64,000 nt of DNA from a virus (taxonomy: Duplodnaviria > Caudoviricetes), in IMG/VR virus record IMGVR_UViG_3300014208_000026, positions 193,182 to 257,181 of that record; one strand, written 5' to 3'. Shown here piece by piece: positions 27,701-36,457 of the stretch. Under the pieces are notes generated by a model, which was given only the letters and a program-made list of their open reading frames with translations, searched no databases and was not told the origin of the DNA. The position numbers and the translations under genes are program-made. Each line of letters opens with the position of its first letter. Positions within the stretch are counted from its first letter, which is position 1.

Positions 27701-30155
27701 TTTGCGATACCCCCTGGCCGACGTGGACAAGAGGGACTGCATTTACGTAGGCAACGTGGAGGGGATGGAAGCGTACACTCCGCATTTCACAACTCTCGTG
27801 GATGCGGTTGACTACGTCAATGAGATTTATAACCCTGCCAATGGAAACTACCCGGGTCGGCGGCTTCGTATCCGAGTGGTTGGCTACACAGACGAGCCTG
27901 GGGACAGGTTGCCGATCACGTTCAACGCCGATGGGATCATCATCGAAGGTGAGCCCTCCGCAAGTGTTGCGGGGGAAAAGAAAGAAGTTCGTTGGGACGG
28001 CGGGACAACTCCTGGGTCTGAAGGGGAAATGCCCCTCATCGATTTCAATGGCAGAGATGACATCATCATTCGGGATGTAGCTTTCAGGTGCACCCTGGAT
28101 GAGACCACCTATCCGCCCACTGATCCAGTGCGAGATCAGGCTACTATGCTCAGGGTGCTCTTTACGAACACGGGGGGCGTGTGCCAGCGTCTGGTTATCG
28201 ACAACTGCCGCCTGTACGGACCCGCACAGGGGTTCCTGTCTATTGACGCAGCACATCCCGGGAGTGGTCTGTCTGGCGCCCACATCACCAGGAACTATGC
28301 TGCTGAGGTGTTGGATGCAGGCATTCGTATTTCTCGGAACGTAGAGGTAGCGAACTACAGCGTATTCGAGAACAACACTTTCACTGTCAATGCTTTCCCC
28401 GGGGGGGACTATTCAGGGAATGGTGGGATTTATCTGAATTCCACTTTAGGGGGAGCTAAGGGAGAGGGAATTCGAGTTTCCGGTAACACGCTGACGGGTT
28501 TCCACTTTGGAGTGCTTGTCAATCCCCTCACCGGGGGGTCTGTGACGGATAATACTCTTCTCGGAAGCTACGCTACAGGACTTCAAGTCCTCAGCGGAGA
28601 TTCAAGCGCTGTTTCCAGAAACCGGTTGGTGGATGTCTGTACGGGTATTGCGGGGGGCCCGGGTCTGAGTGTAACTGGATCTAACTGCCATGTGGAGGAT
28701 AACGCCGTTACCATTCAGACCCCCGCTCCTGGAAACGTTGGTATAGCCGTTTCTTCTGGGGCAGGGAATAGCTTTTCGGGCAACACCAGCAATTCGGACA
28801 TCACCTGGGCGAATTCCGTGGATGGGATTCTTCATGGGAATACGGGTACAGTTTTGGGGGTGTCAGGGGTTTCAACAAACCTCGTACTTTCCGCAAATGC
28901 CATTCAAACGGTCACGCTAGCTGCGGCTGCTACGGGGTGTCGTATTACGGATTGTCAGGGTACGGATTTCACCGTAGAAGCTAACTACACTTCTTTGAAA
29001 GGGGTCGTTTTCACCGGGGATATGACCATCAATGGCGATAACGTGAAAGTGGCCGACTGCCAGGGAGGTGCCCTGAAATTGTTCGGGGGCTACGCCAGTG
29101 TGGTGGATACTTCAGTGTCTACTTTGGAAGCAGGGTACAACGCGGGCACTGCCGCTATGGTCTCGACCAACCACAGCCTGACCAACGTGGTTGCTTCGGG
29201 TTTGGTCTATTTCGGGGTTGACGTTCAGGCAGTCAATTGCCGGTTCCTCGATGACACCTACCTGACTTGGTTTGGCTCTCTTCAGAACTGTATTCTGGCG
29301 GATGTTCATGACTACGTTTGGGATTCCCCGACTGCGATAGCCCTCTCTCTTACTTTGATCGGGAATACCATTACCTTAGTGATGGGAGGTGCAGGAGCCT
29401 TGTCGTGTTCGGGCGGGGTTTTCAAGGGGAACCATTTCCTCGGGGACTTCAAAGTCACGGGTAATTCCGATGCACCTCCTTTGGCCGGGGTGTCCCATAT
29501 CATCGACGGGAATACCGTTGGCGGAGATTTGTTTGTTGGTACCGCGGTGCTGTCCGCAAACAACTCCAGGGTGTGTAACAACATCGTCACAGGGGGCCTG
29601 GAGGCATACGGAGAGGACCTTTGCGTTATGGGGAATCATGTGACGGGTAGTGTTGTTGTCGGGGCTGGAGCTTTGGTTGCTGACGGCTCAAAAGTTTCCA
29701 GTAACACCGTGGGAGTGAATTTGACTTTCTGTGGGGATGATGCTTGTGTAAGTGAGAACCGTGTCGTGGGAAATATCTCTATTCAGACGGGACCGGATGG
29801 GTCTGATGTGATCTCTAACAATCAGGCTGTGAACATGGATTTCCCAAACGTAAAGGGAGATTGTTTTGTCCAGGGTAACGTTTTGAGCGGGAACCTGACG
29901 AACATTGGTTTGGGGGGTGTCTATATTGGTAATCGTGTGGCAGGGTTTATGCAGGCTCCGGGTACGAGTGCTGTCGTGATGGGAAACAAAGTGAGCGGAG
30001 CACTGGGGGCCGGAGGTGGGGTTATCGGGACTGCGATAGTCATGGGTAACCGTGCAGCTAGTGTTTTTGGAGTTACGGCTCCCGCTCTGCCCGGGGGTGC
30101 TATGGATGCGGAGCTTGCTGCTGGTGGAACTTACTACAACGTCACGGAGCCCTAG
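24795..30155 (+). CDS. Large tailspike-like protein with C-terminal beta-helix (1786 aa)
   Basis: HFTTLVDAVDY..IRVVG then many I(S/D)GN/VMGN rungs typical of parallel beta-helices. Confidence 0.7.
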   Translation: MTTVPNDTLGASRDTTPTTPTRDPWQEMMERFSPVPASKMVQAAEVIQGLAGSWANSYVLGSGSIMDDNRAQEPGAPSQVQAVLNTLGLPGMPEINFAPYAHRTNRMGSKGGSLIGHPISFSVVGPTLKNPRTNWQWVITDNSGSANGDVLQLDSVETFNLDPTMAPGAFAKTLEDCYGFANLAGFQGGLYVTITQTGAPVTLTGDVYNTAGGMGDGPLNTALNREPLVPKTSYSKSEIFRVIAMDDTPGNHTLTLDPNKRLADYFIIPAFPDNPAIRGITLLKPEATRCLAIPDSGDKTFEKAFIIVSPERALNADNLYPHYDWIDPAFQEDGLPFISAGLVAYYSLPPHLPVPRSVAVIEGRLWGESLDAPSIADLSARMSVVLDETLLSNPGDWAGKIIQIREVKVRGSAKLTIDPGTGWQADLKSLVGWFEVLSWTGADSKYIVRRIDETDPVTGRAYFYPSQAFELDQTVPPVAGDGIDLAITVHEPISSLWSSSYFDYDAVDSARLTNIIDPKWSPRALKSSGAFPGTRPNRADRSVFDTEGDSGTGLYANPGSMADLGFRMVLFPATIDAVTGSIIPDWSRPVTSNEVVLDPAITTEKQWVEIDYANGMIRLSHAPARTGALWPGDPGVFTHPTENPRGELVIFCSCVPYSMEEGQLGGGTRVTGSTTLEGISMPLGAGQTTEMVDVYGERVVVPVAAHDIPSSNGYTGAAASFIQLVGSVASQIPATGFVEILAGQNAAGDPVFADLTVRASTWGYNGVTEDGTYTYLNNIYGGARYAGPDTVAVATADTHVAVFRKQVSLPSQENGRTLVDYQHDTTYGSAKRPKVLRFEDAEPVANVDGSVTIKPRQTLPLSQVELFNDLFSSWLLEGGTLGTPALVGADWVIPYTASVVLWKGRRYALPKGEIHLPAAATTVYLYIGDTAGIYPAWNYAATLPLGDYDHILMHRVDTTVLAPIGVRVDLRYPLADVDKRDCIYVGNVEGMEAYTPHFTTLVDAVDYVNEIYNPANGNYPGRRLRIRVVGYTDEPGDRLPITFNADGIIIEGEPSASVAGEKKEVRWDGGTTPGSEGEMPLIDFNGRDDIIIRDVAFRCTLDETTYPPTDPVRDQATMLRVLFTNTGGVCQRLVIDNCRLYGPAQGFLSIDAAHPGSGLSGAHITRNYAAEVLDAGIRISRNVEVANYSVFENNTFTVNAFPGGDYSGNGGIYLNSTLGGAKGEGIRVSGNTLTGFHFGVLVNPLTGGSVTDNTLLGSYATGLQVLSGDSSAVSRNRLVDVCTGIAGGPGLSVTGSNCHVEDNAVTIQTPAPGNVGIAVSSGAGNSFSGNTSNSDITWANSVDGILHGNTGTVLGVSGVSTNLVLSANAIQTVTLAAAATGCRITDCQGTDFTVEANYTSLKGVVFTGDMTINGDNVKVADCQGGALKLFGGYASVVDTSVSTLEAGYNAGTAAMVSTNHSLTNVVASGLVYFGVDVQAVNCRFLDDTYLTWFGSLQNCILADVHDYVWDSPTAIALSLTLIGNTITLVMGGAGALSCSGGVFKGNHFLGDFKVTGNSDAPPLAGVSHIIDGNTVGGDLFVGTAVLSANNSRVCNNIVTGGLEAYGEDLCVMGNHVTGSVVVGAGALVADGSKVSSNTVGVNLTFCGDDACVSENRVVGNISIQTGPDGSDVISNNQAVNMDFPNVKGDCFVQGNVLSGNLTNIGLGGVYIGNRVAGFMQAPGTSAVVMGNKVSGALGAGGGVIGTAIVMGNRAASVFGVTAPALPGGAMDAELAAGGTYYNVTEP

Positions 30156-31144
30156 TTAGCCGGAGCGGTCACGTCAGCGCAACCGTTTCCCGAGAGGTAG
30201 GCACACCAAGGGGTCTGGCTCTCGGGAGCCAGACTTTCGATCGACACTTCTTTTTCCGTCACGGTGAGATTGAAGAGGTCCACTGCAGCCCCGCTAATCA
30301 GGTTGAACGAGGTCAGGTTCACGGGCTGACGTACCACGAGGTTCCCTTTGTTCCAGAGTTCGACGGTCATGTTCACGTCAGGGTAGAAGTACACACGGGG
30401 AGTGACGGTGCTGGGGGATTCGAGAGAGGCGCCCTGCTGCAAGGTCACGAGGTACGTCGCGGGGTCCGTGACGATCTCCTTGGGGTAGGTGTTCGTCCCA
30501 CTGCCGGGGTCGCATACGCCGTTCCCGTGGACCTTGGGGTCGAACTTCACGGAGTCCTTGTACAGATTCGTCTCGACCAGAACGGTGTCGTTCTCGGTGT
30601 CCACTTTCGCATGAAAGGTTTCGATGGTGTCCTCGTCGGTGCCCTTGAGAAGGTGCAGGCGGGGGCGGTACTCATACCCCGTCTTGTCGGTGCAGTCGAA
30701 GACCAACCGAATCTCGATACCATCGCTCACGGGCACGGGGGACACGCTCAGGTTCTCTTCCTCGTGGAGGCACTCGCCGGTTTCCAGTTCACAGGAGTCC
30801 AGCGTCATGGGGTTGCCGTCGCTGCAAGTCCGCGTCCAGTGTTCGCACTGGCCCTTGTCGTTGCAGCCGTCCAGCGTGCAGGGGTTCTCGTCGTCACACT
30901 GGACGGTCGAGTCACAGACAAAGGAAATGTCGGCGGGCTTGCAGGTGCAATGCGAGCCATCTTCGGTGCAGACACCCGGCAGGACTTCGTCCGACTCACA
31001 CTGGCAGTCGACGGTTTCGCCCGGTTCGCACGTTCCGAGGATGGGGGTGCCCACGTCGAAGTCTTCGAGCCCATCAGCCCCACCGCAACCCGCCAGGATC
31101 GCCAGCACGCCTACGAACATCGTGGTCAGCAGGAACTTCGTCAT
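30152..31144 (-). CDS. Cys-rich lipoprotein
   Basis: MTKFLLTTMFVGVLAILAGC lipobox; CEPGETVDCQC; CDDENPCTLDGC..C.H and CSDGNPMTLDSC..C.H repeats; GAGGAGG RBS. Confidence 0.8.
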   Translation of the reverse strand: MTKFLLTTMFVGVLAILAGCGGADGLEDFDVGTPILGTCEPGETVDCQCESDEVLPGVCTEDGSHCTCKPADISFVCDSTVQCDDENPCTLDGCNDKGQCEHWTRTCSDGNPMTLDSCELETGECLHEEENLSVSPVPVSDGIEIRLVFDCTDKTGYEYRPRLHLLKGTDEDTIETFHAKVDTENDTVLVETNLYKDSVKFDPKVHGNGVCDPGSGTNTYPKEIVTDPATYLVTLQQGASLESPSTVTPRVYFYPDVNMTVELWNKGNLVVRQPVNLTSFNLISGAAVDLFNLTVTEKEVSIESLAPESQTPWCAYLSGNGCADVTAPAN

Positions 31145-31193
31145 CGGAACCTCCTCGTGGGGGTTTGTTTCTTTCTCTATCCCCCCACACCTA

Positions 31194-31224
31194 CTGTATA
31201 CACCAAGGGAGGTGAAAATGAAAC
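31194..31224 (-). promoter_or_regulatory. Early-type (sigma70-like) promoter
   Basis: GTTTCATT-N12-GGTGTATACAG (TTTCAT-N17-TATACA). Confidence 0.75.
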
Positions 31225-31258
31225 TGGAATCGGACAAGATTCGGTTCCAATGGAAAGA

Positions 31259-31279
31259 CTATAGGTTTCTCTTTGTAGG
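31259..31279 (+). promoter_or_regulatory. Late-type promoter motif
   Basis: CTATAG-N6-CTTTGTAGG. Confidence 0.55.
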
Positions 31280-31303
31280 TCTCTACAAGGGAGCGTTCCA
31301 ATC

Positions 31304-31744
31304 ATGCCAACTTTTACCGCCGCCAAGTACGAGACGATTGATTTCAAGCCCCCTGTTGCCGTGGCCGAAGCCGCGAAAAAGGGTTTGGAGTACAGGCGTA
31401 AGGCCAATCCTTCCAGCAAAGGAGGGTTGACGCCGTCAGAAGCGTCCAAACAAGGGATCGGCTCTGGGGTGCAGAGGGCCACGAACTTGTCGAAGCGGGA
31501 CACGCTTTCTCCCGACACCGTGAAAAGGATGCATTCCTTCTTTGCACGCCATGAGAAGAACAAAGGTATCGCACCAGAACTTCGCGAGGAGCCCTGGAAC
31601 GACAAGGGCCATGTTGCTTGGCTTCTGTGGGGTGGGGACCCGGGTAAAACTTGGGCGGACAAGATCGTCGAGCAAATGAACGCCGCAGACGAAAAGAAAA
31701 CGGCCTCTAGGGTTGCTCGAAGATTCCTTGCTAGCCAGAGGTAG
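31304..31744 (+). CDS. Conserved phage hypothetical protein (WGGD motif)
   Basis: PP..VAEAAKKGLEYR..GVQRA..L..DTVKRMHSFFARH..AWLLWGGD.G..WA, a pattern recalled from widespread phage proteins. Confidence 0.75.
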   Translation: MPTFTAAKYETIDFKPPVAVAEAAKKGLEYRRKANPSSKGGLTPSEASKQGIGSGVQRATNLSKRDTLSPDTVKRMHSFFARHEKNKGIAPELREEPWNDKGHVAWLLWGGDPGKTWADKIVEQMNAADEKKTASRVARRFLASQR

Positions 31745-31747
31745 AGG

Positions 31748-31858
31748 CTACTTCCGAAGGAAGCCGTATTCGTAGACCCCTGGCCTCAGTTTCTCACTCA
31801 GCACCTTGAAGGCCGTTTGGAGTTCCGCCCACTCCTCGGGGAACAGGCCACGCCACAA
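31748..31858 (-). pseudogene. Orphan duplicate of the last 36 codons of the R-M gene
   Basis: LWRGLFPEEWAELQTAFKVLSEKLRPGVYEYGFLRK* vs LFRDLFPQEWSELQTAFKALAEKLRPGVYEYGFLRR* (29/36 identical). Confidence 0.9.
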
Positions 31859-31865
31859 AAAAATC

Positions 31866-32795
31866 TCAGACTACGTGTGTCCAAATCTTACCCGCCGCAA
31901 GGTTGCGTATCGTTTTATGACTTACTCCGAAACGTCGGGCTTGAGACATTTTACTAGCCCCTTCGGCGAGTGCTTTTCGGATTTCTCTCACGGCTTCGTC
32001 TGTCAGCCTGTGTGTCCCACTACGTTCTCCTTTTTGGGCTGTACCATGTCGTTGTTTGTCCATGTTATTATCACTGGGGGTGGCATACCGAAGGTTTTTG
32101 AGTTTAGGATTGGTAGGGTCCCCATCCCAATGGGCCACTTGCATTCCGAACGGGCATGGACCCAGGAAGGCACTCGCCACCAGTTTATGGACGGCGTGCA
32201 TTTTAGTGCTATTATTTTTGCTTAAATGGACTCCTGGATAGAGACCTAAGAAAACGGTGTACCTTAGAGTTCCTCTGACAAGGCGTTGTCCACCCCATCG
32301 ATGTTTTACATAATGATCCATGCTTCGTATTCTGCCCCAATCGGAAACTTCATAAAGCCCCTCATATCCAACAACGGGTTTCCATATCTCGCTGGTTTGC
32401 ACAAGTGGGATTGCAACTAGCGGGATGATCATAGGAGTACAGTGGTAGTGTCCTTTCTGGTTGTTGTTGATTAGTGGAGTGGCCCACTGTAAGTTGGTAG
32501 CACAGTTGTTTCCAGGGTTTCCGTCCAGGTGTGCAACGTGGGGGTGTTCTGCAGGATTTGGAACAAAAGCAGCGGCTACAAGTCGATGCACAAGTAACCC
32601 TTTGGTTTTGCAGTCTTTTCTGAAATTCACAAAAAAGTAGCCTTTTACATTTTTATGAAGTACTAACATTCTGCCTCTCAATCGGATTTCATTTGTACCG
32701 CTAGGGACTATCCGGTCTAGGCTACGCACACGCCCTGCGTTGGAAACTTCGTAGTAGCCTTCATATCCCTCAATGGGTTTCCATTCCTCTTGCAT
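31866..32795 (-). CDS. Tandem NUMOD4-HNH homing endonuclease with C-terminal HTH
   Basis: Two copies of EEWKPI.GYEG.YEVS..GR.RS..VH.LVA.AF..V.H.DG...N...NL; AT-rich. Confidence 0.92.
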   Translation of the reverse strand: MQEEWKPIEGYEGYYEVSNAGRVRSLDRIVPSGTNEIRLRGRMLVLHKNVKGYFFVNFRKDCKTKGLLVHRLVAAAFVPNPAEHPHVAHLDGNPGNNCATNLQWATPLINNNQKGHYHCTPMIIPLVAIPLVQTSEIWKPVVGYEGLYEVSDWGRIRSMDHYVKHRWGGQRLVRGTLRYTVFLGLYPGVHLSKNNSTKMHAVHKLVASAFLGPCPFGMQVAHWDGDPTNPKLKNLRYATPSDNNMDKQRHGTAQKGERSGTHRLTDEAVREIRKALAEGASKMSQARRFGVSHKTIRNLAAGKIWTHVV

Positions 32796-32954
32796 CTGTT
32801 ACCTCGAAAGGTATTTTCAATGAGAGGAAACTATAGGCAAGATATCGGTCTTTTCAGTCTGTGGTACTGGCCTAAGAGCAGGCTTTTTCAAAGACAACCG
32901 CACCTAAAACTTGGAATCCACTAGATTTCAAGTCTGGTGTTTTCATCCGCCTGG

Positions 32955-32981
32955 GACCGCGGGCAAAAGCCGGTCTTTTTT
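32955..32981 (+). terminator. Intrinsic terminator-like hairpin
   Basis: GACC..GGC-AAAA-GCC-GGTC followed by T6. Confidence 0.55.
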
Positions 32982-33055
32982 GATTGCCGGAAGCGGCCTA
33001 GGCTAGACTCTGCATTTCAAGCATATTCTAACTTCTGGCTGAAATAGGCAGAGAA

Positions 33056-35566
33056 TTATCGCCGCAGGAAACCGTACTCGTAAACTCCCGGACGCAACTT
33101 TTCCGCTAGTGCCTTGAAGGCCGTTTGGAGTTCTGACCATTCCTGCGGGAACAAGTCCCTGAAAAGGTGCTTGGTTTGGTACAAACCCGCGTCCCAGCTC
33201 GTCAAGTGCAACTCCGGCTTACCGGCTGCATAAGCCTCACGAACGGGCAAGGACTTGACCCAGAGGTTGTCCAGGAGGAAAAGAACCTGTTTAGCTTCGG
33301 GGGAGAGGTTCACCTTGTAACGCAGAACATGGGCCATGTAGGGATCTGGTGTTGATTCTACGGGGTTCCCGAACACGTCCTTAGCAGGGTGGTTTTTGCA
33401 GTCCCGATAGAGCGTTGGCGTCTCAGGAGTGTCGAGGGCAACGAGAGCGCTTGCGTGGTCTTTCCAGAAGAAATGGTTGTGGATATCCCAAGATTTGCCG
33501 GCGTAGGAGACGGAACGCATCGAGGTGCAGTTGTTCGAGTTGTGGAGAAGGGCGTAGACGTGACAAGAATCGAGCCAGCCGGAGTAACCAGGGGTGTCTT
33601 TGGCAGGAGAGAGATATTCGTCTTTCTGGTTGTCCCAGGTTTCGGCGACTAGCTTACGGGCTGCGAAGAGGGCAACAGCACGACGCCAATTGGAACAACG
33701 AACAGAAAGCCCGTGGTTTCGAGTGTCAGCACTCGAAACCACATAGACGAGGGTCCCACTATCACAGAGGTTGTTGCTGTTGTTCCCGAAGAACAGAAGA
33801 GCACCAGGGACAAGAGAGCCCCGTCCTGTTTCTTTCACTTTGAGCCCGCTACTCATTTGCGGAGCGTCCACCCCGCGTGCTTTGCCCAAAGGTTCCCGCA
33901 CCCACTTGGAAGCTTCTCTCCCATCCGCGTTGTAGGCTGTTTTCGTTCCCGTCTTGATAACAGAGAAGTTTTGAACGTCTTTCAGGTCGAGGGGCAATGT
34001 TCTCTTGGAGTCAGTTTTTCCAGGGGAGTTCCAAACGGTGAACGAGATCCCCCAACGGCTGCTCACGTCCGCAAAGTGAGAAGCCTGGAACAGAAACCCT
34101 GACTGGAACTCATACTGGCTATTCCACCAATCCCTGAAGGGTTTGTAACTCCCGCTGCTCATGAAAGTCGGGACGGAGAACAAAGCGACCGTCGACTTCT
34201 CGAATCCGAAGTCCCGTGCAACCTTGTTGAACTGGAACATGAACTGCGTGTAGAGTTGCTGTGAAGCTCCGCCCAGCTTGGCTGTTTTCATCGCCGTGTT
34301 GGTAGCGGTGAGGGCTATTCCCGCTTTACTATCCCCCTCCACAGTTCCTGCATTGTTGGCAGTCCCGTAAGGCGGGTTCCCGAACCACACAAGTCGCTTC
34401 CCAGCCGCAGCCGCTCTACGAAGCCGCTCCACTACGGATTCAGGCAGGACATTCTTGTCTTTGGCGTCGACGAAGAAGAAGGGACTAGGCACTCCAGGGT
34501 TTAGGAAATCGTACTGCACGACCGAAGCACCAGGATTGTAGCTCTGGCTCTTGATTACCTCCACGTCGGGCTTCTCAGCCGTCGAGAGAATCAAGTCCGC
34601 GAACACGTAGTCACGGGTGAGGTTCGCTGTTCCGGCACTCGAATCCCAGACTATGCACTCCTCTTTCCAGTTCGGCCCAAGTACCTTTTCGAGTTCCTTA
34701 TGCGCCGAGTCGGCCCACAAATTCGACGTGTAGAAGGCACCCTGTCTCCGCCTTGCATCATCTTCTATCAACCGGTCCTTCATGGCGTAGAACGCCTCAA
34801 CCTCCGAAGGCCGATACCCCTGTTGGAAGTGGTCGAAGAACGACCGGTACTGGTCGGCGTTCACCACTACCCCGTCCCCATACCCAGGGACGACCAACAC
34901 TCCCCGTTTGACGGGATGGAGATAGACGTCCGTAGGCTGGAAAAGGCACCGCAGGAATACGTCGACCTGTTCGACCGGCGTCAAAGCACTTCCGGTAAAC
35001 ACCCTGTTCTGCCAGTAGTTGAACATGACGCCGACGTTCCCGGGAGTCGCCCGTACGGCGTGAAATTCTCCCTTGGCCAGCACTTCGACCTTGGCGAGTA
35101 CATCACGGAAGTTCAAGCTCCCGTTTACGTCGTACACGTAAGGAAGGAGGTTGAGCCCCGAGACCAACGCCCGCGTTAGTTCCGGTGAGCCCTTGGAAGG
35201 CGCCACCGACCAGTCGATCGGTTGGCTCAGGAAACTCTGGACGGCCGAAGTGCCCAGGACCAAGCACTCGTTCCTATCTCCAACGAACAAGACGTTGGGG
35301 AGGATCTCACCGGCCTGCTCGAATTTCTTGAGATACAGTAACAGTTGCCCCAGAACTCCACAGAGGGAAGCTCGTTCTTTCAGGTGCTCATCGTACTTGG
35401 CTTCCAAGAGCATCCTGACGGTTTGCCAACAGGCTAGGCCATCCGTGTTGTAGGGAGAGGTGAGGGAGACGTCAGGGCGGGTGTTTACTATCTCCGCCCT
35501 ATAGGCGTTCTCGACGTCCTTCTCGGTCAGAGCCGAACCTAGTAACTGGAGAGTCTGCTTACGCAC
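33056..35566 (-). CDS. Type IIG-like fused restriction endonuclease / N6-adenine methyltransferase
   Basis: N-terminal TDG..LLEAK PD-(D/E)xK; RRQGAFYT; WDSSAGTANLT (motif I variant); FGNPPYG (motif IV); C-terminal TRD-like region; GTG start after GAGGA. Confidence 0.8.
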   Translation of the reverse strand: MRKQTLQLLGSALTEKDVENAYRAEIVNTRPDVSLTSPYNTDGLACWQTVRMLLEAKYDEHLKERASLCGVLGQLLLYLKKFEQAGEILPNVLFVGDRNECLVLGTSAVQSFLSQPIDWSVAPSKGSPELTRALVSGLNLLPYVYDVNGSLNFRDVLAKVEVLAKGEFHAVRATPGNVGVMFNYWQNRVFTGSALTPVEQVDVFLRCLFQPTDVYLHPVKRGVLVVPGYGDGVVVNADQYRSFFDHFQQGYRPSEVEAFYAMKDRLIEDDARRRQGAFYTSNLWADSAHKELEKVLGPNWKEECIVWDSSAGTANLTRDYVFADLILSTAEKPDVEVIKSQSYNPGASVVQYDFLNPGVPSPFFFVDAKDKNVLPESVVERLRRAAAAGKRLVWFGNPPYGTANNAGTVEGDSKAGIALTATNTAMKTAKLGGASQQLYTQFMFQFNKVARDFGFEKSTVALFSVPTFMSSGSYKPFRDWWNSQYEFQSGFLFQASHFADVSSRWGISFTVWNSPGKTDSKRTLPLDLKDVQNFSVIKTGTKTAYNADGREASKWVREPLGKARGVDAPQMSSGLKVKETGRGSLVPGALLFFGNNSNNLCDSGTLVYVVSSADTRNHGLSVRCSNWRRAVALFAARKLVAETWDNQKDEYLSPAKDTPGYSGWLDSCHVYALLHNSNNCTSMRSVSYAGKSWDIHNHFFWKDHASALVALDTPETPTLYRDCKNHPAKDVFGNPVESTPDPYMAHVLRYKVNLSPEAKQVLFLLDNLWVKSLPVREAYAAGKPELHLTSWDAGLYQTKHLFRDLFPQEWSELQTAFKALAEKLRPGVYEYGFLRR

Positions 35567-35603
35567 TGGTGGGTTCCTCTGAAGGAACGGTTTCTCTATC
35601 CCC

Positions 35604-35634
35604 CTGTATACACCACGGGGAATGAAAATGAAAC
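35604..35634 (-). promoter_or_regulatory. Early-type promoter
   Basis: GTTTCATT-N12-GGTGTATACAG. Confidence 0.75.
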
Positions 35635-35656
35635 CCAAATCGTTCCGAAGTCCCGA

Positions 35657-35811
35657 ACGCGGTTACACTACAAAACGGCCCTTCTGTAGTGTAACCGCGT
35701 CCAGCAATCACAGGAAAGCACTAGCAATTCGGTCCGTCCGATGGCTAAGGTAAAGACCTTTACCTTAAAGTAAAGGGAGCTTGCACACTAAACCTCCCCG
35801 CTTTAGTGTGC
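35657..35811. repeat. Three perfect inverted repeats
   Basis: 16-bp arms 35657-72/35685-700; 10-bp arms 35746-55/35758-67; 10-bp arms 35783-92/35802-11. Confidence 0.9.
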
Positions 35812-35838
35812 CTTTATGGTCCGGTCGCGGTAGTTTCG

Positions 35839-35859
35839 CTATAGCTTCTGCTATGATAG
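35839..35859 (+). promoter_or_regulatory. Late-type promoter motif (weaker)
   Basis: CTATAG-N6-CTATGATAG. Confidence 0.45.
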
Positions 35860-35878
35860 ACAGGTTGGAGTTTACCCC

Positions 35879-36457
35879 ATGTTCAGTAGCTTGGTTTCGA
35901 GAGTGGCTTCCAGGTTCTTAGCTTTGCGGACTGCGAGCACGGTCCGGCTGGCTATTTCCCAAAGGGCTTTCCTGTATTTCATGAGTAAGCCTGGGCAACT
36001 AGGGGTCATATCGGCCTACCTTGACGGCAAGAAGAGCATCAACAAGCAGAGACACGGACAGCTAATAGTCGACTTGCAAAAGCTCGGTTATCGTAAGGTC
36101 TCCGACTTCAAAGGGTCTTGGGAAGGGAAAAAAGAGCATTCCGTTGTAGTTGAAAATATTCGGCATGAGGATTTGTTCGAACTCGGTCGGAAGTACGGAC
36201 AGGAATCCGTGATCTTTAAGGCCAAGACTGGCGTCGTGGGAATGTACTATTTCAGGACTATGGACGCCCAAGTAGCCGTAGACCCTAAAAGCGGAGGCCC
36301 TGCGTTTGAAACGGCGCTTGGCCGAGCAGGAATTTCCAAGGAGCGGAACTGGTCATTCAGTTTTGATTTCTTGGAGGGCAGGATTCCCTGGGATGGACAT
36401 TCTGTGATCACTCATGACGATATCGCCAAGCACCTGGGACTTCAACTAGCCCGCTAG
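35879..36457 (+). CDS. Hypothetical protein, DUF3293-like
   Basis: ISAY..N..RH..L..DL..LG..G.W....E.S..V..LGRKYGQESV resembles the DUF3293 pattern. Confidence 0.55.
   Translation: MFSSLVSRVASRFLALRTASTVRLAISQRAFLYFMSKPGQLGVISAYLDGKKSINKQRHGQLIVDLQKLGYRKVSDFKGSWEGKKEHSVVVENIRHEDLFELGRKYGQESVIFKAKTGVVGMYYFRTMDAQVAVDPKSGGPAFETALGRAGISKERNWSFSFDFLEGRIPWDGHSVITHDDIAKHLGLQLAR

Follow-up and report, generated by a model that had tools for sequence, protein, structure and literature searches.

How can a homing endonuclease gene lie inside a protein-coding gene and leave that gene whole? The question is raised by a 64,000-nucleotide stretch of phage DNA (Duplodnaviria; Caudoviricetes; IMG/VR virus record IMGVR_UViG_3300014208_000026, positions 193,182 to 257,181; hereafter the window, with positions counted from its first letter), where a gene resembling those of restriction-modification (R-M) systems is followed by an HNH endonuclease gene and then by a second copy of its own 3' end. 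The window forms the end of a 257-kb viral contig whose completeness is estimated at about half, and the source is therefore a huge phage. The arrangement is probably a composite mobile element. Its core is a free-standing HNH gene related to that of I-HmuI, and it is lodged inside a conserved R-M-like gene, here called the host gene. The element would have been inserted at a fixed site, K823/H824, about 110 nucleotides (nt) before the stop codon of the host gene, and would comprise tail A, which replaces the last 36-38 codons and ends in a stop of its own, together with the endonuclease gene. Tail B, the orphan, would be the 36 codons with which the gene originally ended, pushed downstream, severed from the gene and left as a relic. 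The parts of the locus are as follows, in their order on the minus strand:

33056-35566, minus strand: host gene (R-M-like), 836 amino acids (aa)
33167-33172, minus strand: K-H codons (AAG CAC) of the intact gene, corresponding to the presumed insertion point of the element
33056-33166, minus strand: tail A, the gene end in use, 36 codons (33059-33166) and a TAA stop (33056-33058)
33112-33133, minus strand: 22-nt block of identity between tails A and B, their longest identical run, with its partner at 31804-31825
32796-33055, minus strand: spacer between the tail A stop and the HNH start, 260 nt, non-coding
31866-32795, minus strand: NUMOD4-HNH gene, free-standing, 309 aa
31748-31858, minus strand: tail B, the orphan gene end, 36 stop-free codons (31751-31858) and a TAG stop (31748-31750)

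The existence of a stop-free second gene end of 36 codons downstream of the HNH gene, first remarked in an earlier reading made from the letters and their translations (the sequence-only reading), is confirmed. Tail B lies directly past the TGA of the HNH open reading frame (ORF), 29 of its 36 residues match those of the end in use (80.6%, tblastn), and the two tails form a 92-nt direct repeat with 76% nucleotide identity. The host gene has more than 470 homologues, and the best 120 of these, at 56-72% identity and on contigs of up to 530 kb, nearly all terminate in the sequence ...KHLWRDLFPxEWxELQxAFKALAxKLRPGVYxYGFLRR. A hidden Markov model (HMM) of the ends of these 120 homologues matches the orphan over HMM positions 15-50 with E = 1.4e-17, so that its likeness to a gene end is not due to chance. 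Tail A is contiguous and in frame with the body of the gene, and a run of T residues, 2 nt longer than its counterpart in the related locus L108, stands in the orphan in place of the K-H codons. Tail A is closed by a stop codon, the HNH gene is complete from start to stop, and a search of positions 30000-36000 with Rfam and intron models returned no group I or group II intron or other RNA family at E <= 1; the arrangement is not that of an intron- or intein-borne endonuclease.

The composite is not confined to the window. The closest homologues of the HNH protein (P0123-P0127, 58-66% aa identity) are all found in the same context, on contigs that were grouped as L007/L008, L009/L114, L107, L108-L110 and L111/L113, each group being treated as one lineage. 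In the first four of these lineages the end of a host-gene homologue is followed by the HNH gene and then by an orphan end, with only 3-5 nt between the tail A stop and the HNH start; the L111/L113 contig starts inside the HNH gene, and only the HNH gene and an orphan remnant are visible there, the upstream end being unseen. The stop codon of the HNH gene overlaps the first base of the orphan K codon in L007, L009, L108 and L111, and on the tail HMM, which has 50 positions, the start of every orphan falls between positions 11 and 17. Because the contigs derive from different samples and assemblers, the composite is not an assembly artefact, and because the junctions match wherever they can be read, it is of single origin. 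L009 and L108 retain an intact orphan. In L107 the first four codons are missing, in L007 the frame is shifted, and in L111 only about 35 nt remain, so that the orphan looks like a relic caught at differing stages of decay. Searches for further examples added little: a scan of JGI metagenomes returned two contigs, both from lineages already in the set, a scan of IMG/VR with an alignment of HNH proteins returned only distant relatives (at most 50% identity) in other contexts, and a search of phage GenBank entries with positions 31000-36000 gave no match. A search for small proteins like the orphan, made with 50 aa of the tail, brought up no candidates with enough words in common.

Relatives that lack the HNH gene have a single end. 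The sequence-only reading had proposed in advance, as a test of invasion, to see whether such relatives also carry both ends, and the answer is no: exactly one end is present at each of the 19 distinct HNH-less loci that were read as DNA, and two more (P0016 and P0039), judged from gene tables rather than from DNA, show no HNH gene next door. An alignment-based scan of IMG/VR yielded 17 loci, none with a second end, and a scan with the single host protein yielded nothing. In the tree of host genes, the window groups with the HNH-less P0004 (99% support), and the HNH-bearing P0070 and P0088 pair with the HNH-less P0016 (100% support). The HNH gene is accordingly a fixed-site insertion in a conserved gene that is sporadic among relatives, and this sporadic placement implies either at least two gains or one gain and several losses.

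The divergence between the two ends is informative as to their history. Tails A and B differ with a synonymous divergence (pS) of 0.80 and a nonsynonymous divergence (pN) of 0.126, values which point to two working gene ends that had long diverged in separate genomes and not to a local duplication. That the gene end was duplicated in tandem in this genome, with a later and unrelated HNH insertion separating the copies, is scarcely credible: slippage or illegitimate repair can indeed yield direct repeats that flank an insertion, but the pS between the copies is as large as that between phage lineages, their pN is low, the other lineages have matching junctions at every place where these can be seen, and no relative with two ends but no HNH gene was found among those compared. 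The orphans of different genomes likewise differ from one another with a pN well below pS, from which it follows that they were working gene ends until recently. Taken with the recurrence of the composite and the single-ended HNH-less relatives, these pS and pN values support the proposal of the sequence-only reading, namely an invading HNH cassette that supplied a replacement 3' end and so kept the gene intact.

The question of which end is native can be answered with somewhat less assurance; in this genome, the orphan is probably the native end and the used copy the imported one. Composition was considered as a test and rejected. The used copy has a GC content at third codon positions (GC3) of 0.64 and the orphan one of 0.78, a gap that lies within the window-to-window spread of the gene itself (0.67 +/- 0.085 in 36-codon windows). 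The codons to which the sequence-only reading had drawn attention in the used copy (TCA, GCA CTA and GGA GTT) are present, but the contrast in GC3 on which it had relied is not significant, and its further idea of a recoded end is unnecessary, as the used copy is simply a diverged homologue. A sliding-window scan of nearest neighbors along the host protein, in search of a recombination breakpoint, was too noisy to reveal a clear switch.

Synonymous divergence provides a weak pointer in favor of tail B as native. Against the closest HNH-less relative (L002), pS is 0.87 for tail A and 0.63 for tail B, and 37-codon windows of the gene body have a mean of 0.70 and a maximum of 0.84, figures that rest on about 25 synonymous sites with all comparisons near saturation; L003 and the L009/L112 pair show the same direction. 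Furthermore, the stop of tail B lies 3 nt from that of a convergent gene (31304-31744), as a native terminus would, and the shared junctions are most simply explained by insertion at a fixed codon within the gene. The reverse direction, with tail A native and the spacer, the HNH gene and a donor end fragment (tail B) landing past the native stop, would be consistent with the host-like GC3 of tail A (0.64 against a gene mean of 0.67) beside an HNH gene and spacer of low GC, and with the 260-nt spacer that follows the tail A stop in this genome alone, and comparisons of 36 codons are too short to decide the matter. Nevertheless it is distinctly improbable, in view of the mere 3-5 nt found at that place in four other lineages and of the constant first codon of the orphan, which indicates insertion inside the gene, as well as the terminus-like position of tail B and, in comparison with HNH-less relatives, its body-like pS beside tail A as the outlier.

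The spread of the element can be pictured as follows. During co-infection, the enzyme would cut or nick HNH-less alleles near the stretch coding for ...LWRDLFPTEW, and repair would copy the element from the donor, with the gene body as left arm and the orphan end as right arm. The used copy would be spared because it differs from the target, and recombination between the two ends could remove the element cleanly. All six orphans and many HNH-less genes retain (D)LFPTEW, with the DNA core CTGTTCCC, and the used copies of four of the five lineages in which they can be read bear LYKEDW, LYPEDW, LYSEEW or VYSEDW instead (pattern LY[KPS]E[DE]W). These substitutions would fit escape from the enzyme, in the sense of resistance to re-cleavage, and are suggestive only; the four lineages perhaps represent two or three independent events.

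Several observations weigh against this interpretation. The used copy in the window reads DLFPQEW, which is near the presumed target, and protection by divergence is not evident there; HNH-less genes with the LYPEDW form also occur (P0039). The direction of insertion is weakly supported in this genome, by about 25 synonymous sites and by analogy. The GC3 of tail A is host-like (0.64), unlike that of the HNH gene (0.44), its supposed companion. Tails A and B of one genome have lineage-specific residues in common (EYGFL, DLGWL), which implies close donors or gene conversion between the copies, and no close relative with an empty site was found in the loci searched. Finally, the nucleotide identity of the HNH gene equals that of the host-gene body in each pair of lineages (65-67% and 66% between the window and L007; 72% and 71% between L007 and L009), so that any transfers are not recent on this scale, and such equality also fits long vertical co-descent with losses.

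Gene conversion between the ends is indeed likely to have occurred. Perfect blocks of identity between tails A and B span 22 nt in the window, 26 nt in L009 and 21 nt in L108, at different positions, and shuffling of codon columns gives P = 0.004, P < 1/5000 and P = 0.02 for the three, respectively; these blocks are likely to be short conversion tracts. Recombination at such a block would delete the HNH gene cleanly and is a plausible route to the HNH-less sisters. As the repeats are direct, recombination between them means loss, not a reversible switch.

An ancient single insertion followed by vertical descent would draw on the same evidence. According to this account, conversion has kept the ends alike, deletion has produced the HNH-less relatives, and no homing is ongoing, and the endonuclease may have been domesticated or have become idle. 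The identities of HNH gene and gene body, equal in every lineage pair, would be explained, as would the perfect blocks at different places in three genomes and the fact that the host genes verified to bear the HNH gene all lie in a single part of the tree. Outside the blocks, however, synonymous saturation is accompanied by a pN of only 0.13-0.23, and an orphan that had drifted neutrally from a time before the lineages separated should have lost its coding character; the low pN between orphans does not fit one ancient, neutrally drifting orphan. Moreover, every HNH-bearing group has an HNH-less sister, requiring at least two or three separate losses, and the catalytic residues of the HNH protein are still under selection. 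Simple descent of this kind is therefore unlikely, although less so than the reverse direction of insertion.

The orphan may alternatively be thought to have a function, either as an alternative C-terminus reached by recombination or splicing, which the sequence-only reading had also entertained, or as a coupled peptide that mimics the last helical hairpin of the host protein. The orphan is stop-free and protein-like in four of the six lineages, an ATG or GTG overlaps the HNH stop codon in L108-L110, L111 and L009, and gene callers list a 39-aa ORF in L009, L108 and L109. Three of the four possible NTG codons are start codons in any event, however, and the window copy has neither an ATG nor a ribosome-binding site and its frame is closed upstream by a TAG. 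The orphan is frameshifted in L007 and truncated in L111. A switch of termini finds no support in the region, since no intron or other RNA family was matched there, direct repeats recombine to delete and not to switch, and the used copy has its own stop. A functional orphan is thus very improbable.

A further role for the orphan can be proposed within the model of a composite mobile element, namely that it serves as a homing arm and so constitutes a third working part beside the replacement end and the endonuclease gene. No genes are shared 3' of the host gene among the loci compared, and an HNH gene placed after the stop codon would, for want of downstream homology, have no right arm in most recipients. 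Insertion 110 nt before the end of the gene, together with a substitute end, would place both arms inside the conserved gene, and occasional conversion from the used copy would keep the arm recognizable. The proposal is tentative and, on balance, doubtful. If true, the homing arm would represent a general, intron-free way to colonize gene ends that border variable regions in huge phages.

The host gene encodes a protein predicted from motifs and fold to be a nuclease-methyltransferase fusion that resembles the Type IIG/IIL R-M enzymes. Residues D66, E79-x-K81 and NPPY421-424 are invariant across 25 homologues, and the layout is that of Type IIG/IIL enzymes, with a PD-(D/E)xK nuclease, a gamma-class N6-adenine methyltransferase (NPPY) and a target-recognition region in a single chain. 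An AlphaFold model of the protein (predicted local distance difference test score, pLDDT, of 79.7) was used in a fold search, which matched DrdV, BpuSI, MmeI, BsaXI and BREX PglX/BrxX with a best E of 3.4e-9. The matches to DrdV, BpuSI, MmeI and BsaXI have E = 3e-9 to 2e-6 and a probability of 1.0 with low template modelling scores, which are attributed to domain arrangement. No match was found in Pfam, PHROG or NCBIfam, and a sequence-profile search of the PDB gave nothing significant, so that the fold search was the only source of an assignment. At the level of motifs and fold, the R-M label given to the gene by the sequence-only reading is a reasonable one. The last 60 residues are modelled with block-mean pLDDT values of 87-97 and include helices at 819-829 and 831-854. 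The ORF reaches 24 codons further upstream, to a TTG at 35638, but every homologue starts where the GTG at 35566 lies. This GTG is probably the true start, giving a protein of 836 aa that matches the homologues.

Several homologues of the host gene have large internal insertions or altered ends, namely P0071 (1009 aa), P0095 (992 aa), P0062 (755 aa) and P0020, the last with an odd C-terminal extension. No Pfam domain was found in these or in P0074, another homologue with a large insertion, and these variants may represent further insertions or fusions in the host gene family.

The 309-aa product of the HNH gene consists of two NUMOD4-HNH modules in tandem that are 43% identical to one another. 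Pfam models for NUMOD4 (4.4e-28) and HNH_3 (6.7e-19) each match two stretches of the protein, with a weak match to HTH_38 at a C-terminal helix-turn-helix, and the protein also matches I-HmuI of phage SPO1 (1U3E; E = 2.1e-13) and HNH families of PHROG. Residues H222, D224, N229 and N234 are invariant in six close homologues, and between lineages the gene has a pN of 0.15-0.32 against a pS of 0.60-0.89, values which indicate purifying selection. Given the invariant catalytic residues, the pN well below pS and the homology to I-HmuI, the endonuclease is predicted to be active, as seems likely. The gene is compositionally foreign in the window, with a GC3 of 0.44 against 0.68 in the body of the host gene. 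The presence of two HNH sites per chain could convert a nickase into an enzyme that cuts both strands.

Among its homologues, forms with two modules (P0002, P0123, P0124 and P0125) interleave with single-module forms (P0126 and P0127), the nearest form to P0126 being P0123 and that to P0127 being P0124. Loss or gain of the first module has thus taken place on more than one occasion, and the repeated modules may have recombined to bring it about.

The 260-nt spacer (46% GC) is present only in this genome, in contrast to the 3-5 nt seen in the other four lineages with a visible junction. It contains no Rfam match and no open frame, its folding z-score of -1.5 is not significant, and no repeat and no similar DNA were found elsewhere in the genome or in any fetched locus. 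The spacer carries GAGG 7 nt before the HNH ATG. At 32823-32837, about 37 nt upstream of that ATG, it also carries CCTATAGTTTCCTCT, the first half of a recurrent motif, YCTATAG-N10/11-RTAG, which occurs in full in 12 copies elsewhere in the genome. An exact search for a late motif was rejected as evidence, because matches were no commoner than in the control and the bipartite motif is represented by its first half only.

The closest parallel to this locus is provided by fungal mitochondria, where hybrid genes of the mORF type are known from atp6 of Allomyces macrogynus and from atp6, atp9, cox2 and nad3 of Glomus sp., with further cases in atp9 of Rhizopus, cox2 of Mortierella, and atp6 and cob of Endoconidiophora (PMC3630166, PMC6279837). 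As here, a core gene has a foreign, in-frame C-terminal end, followed by an endonuclease ORF and a displaced native remnant, and the insertions are sporadic among relatives. This layout is complete in the window and four further lineages, and its HNH-plus-remnant side is seen in a fifth. In both settings the protein is kept and the DNA has diverged, with 63.5% nucleotide and 91% aa identity in atp6 of Glomus compared to 76% and 81% here. The differences are nonetheless substantial. The host is a huge bacteriophage and not an organelle, the enzyme is of the NUMOD4-HNH type and not LAGLIDADG or GIY-YIG, and the target is an R-M-like gene. A stop codon closes the inserted end, and the endonuclease occupies an ORF of its own, which in this genome lies behind a 260-nt spacer. 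Whereas the fungal remnants are 91-98% identical in nucleotide sequence to a close relative, no such relative is available here, and the direction of insertion is less certain.

Closer in sequence are the endonucleases I-HmuI and I-HmuII of the Bacillus phages SPO1 and SP82, to which the enzyme is related by the homology of its first NUMOD4-HNH module and by a C-terminal helix-turn-helix. These phage homing enzymes introduce a nick close to the insertion site and recognize mainly downstream sequence. I-HmuI has one HNH module compared to two in tandem here, and it resides in a self-splicing group I intron; in the window no intron was detected, and a spare end keeps the gene whole.

A third point of comparison is the "intronless homing" of the free-standing endonucleases SegB, SegF, SegG and MobE of T4-like phages, which spread by cutting an endonuclease-less allele in co-infection, with co-conversion of flanking markers (PMC2330249, PMC2790892). 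The locus described here shares with them a free-standing endonuclease gene beside or within conserved phage genes. Here, however, the element lies inside the coding sequence and supplies a replacement end, and to our knowledge the endonuclease genes of this type in T4-like phages are intergenic or split a gene (nrdA of Aeh1) and leave no duplicated gene end. A limited full-text search of the literature recovered no phage example of an endonuclease with a spare gene end.

A homing endonuclease that resides inside a phage coding gene without an intron or intein, by virtue of a spare end, would represent an alternative to splicing that was previously documented mainly in fungal mitochondria. The six lineages, with their intact, frameshifted, truncated and trimmed orphans and their single- and double-module enzymes, offer a small natural experiment covering the life cycle of such an element, from invasion and co-conversion to decay and clean loss by repeat recombination. 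For annotation, a small "hypothetical" ORF that follows an HNH gene may be the relic of another gene, and conserved gene ends in huge phages can be foreign mosaics, which affects phylogenies built on them. The enzyme itself is a candidate for characterization, as a probable site-specific HNH endonuclease that has its catalytic modules in tandem and whose target, of about 20-30 bp, can be defined.

Some minor features of the contigs and their surroundings may be added. The contigs of L107, L109 and L110 are very short (826-1668 nt) and break in or just outside the two ends, as would be expected of assembly graphs where HNH-bearing and HNH-less variants, or single- and double-module variants, share one sample. 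Other mobile genes occur near host-gene homologues, including ORFs for TnpB/Cas12f-like proteins (L002:3319-4734 and L009:1773-3185) and GIY-YIG endonuclease genes (L007:117-1085 and the P0016 contig), and the locus appears to be a hotspot of mobile elements. Within the window, a 39-nt direct repeat with 82% identity (31194-31232 and 35604-35642) spans the start regions of two minus-strand genes, the one at 30152-31237 and the R-M-like gene, and is a shared promoter- or leader-like block. Just upstream of its copy at 35604-35642 lies a palindrome with perfect arms of 22 nt (35657-35700).

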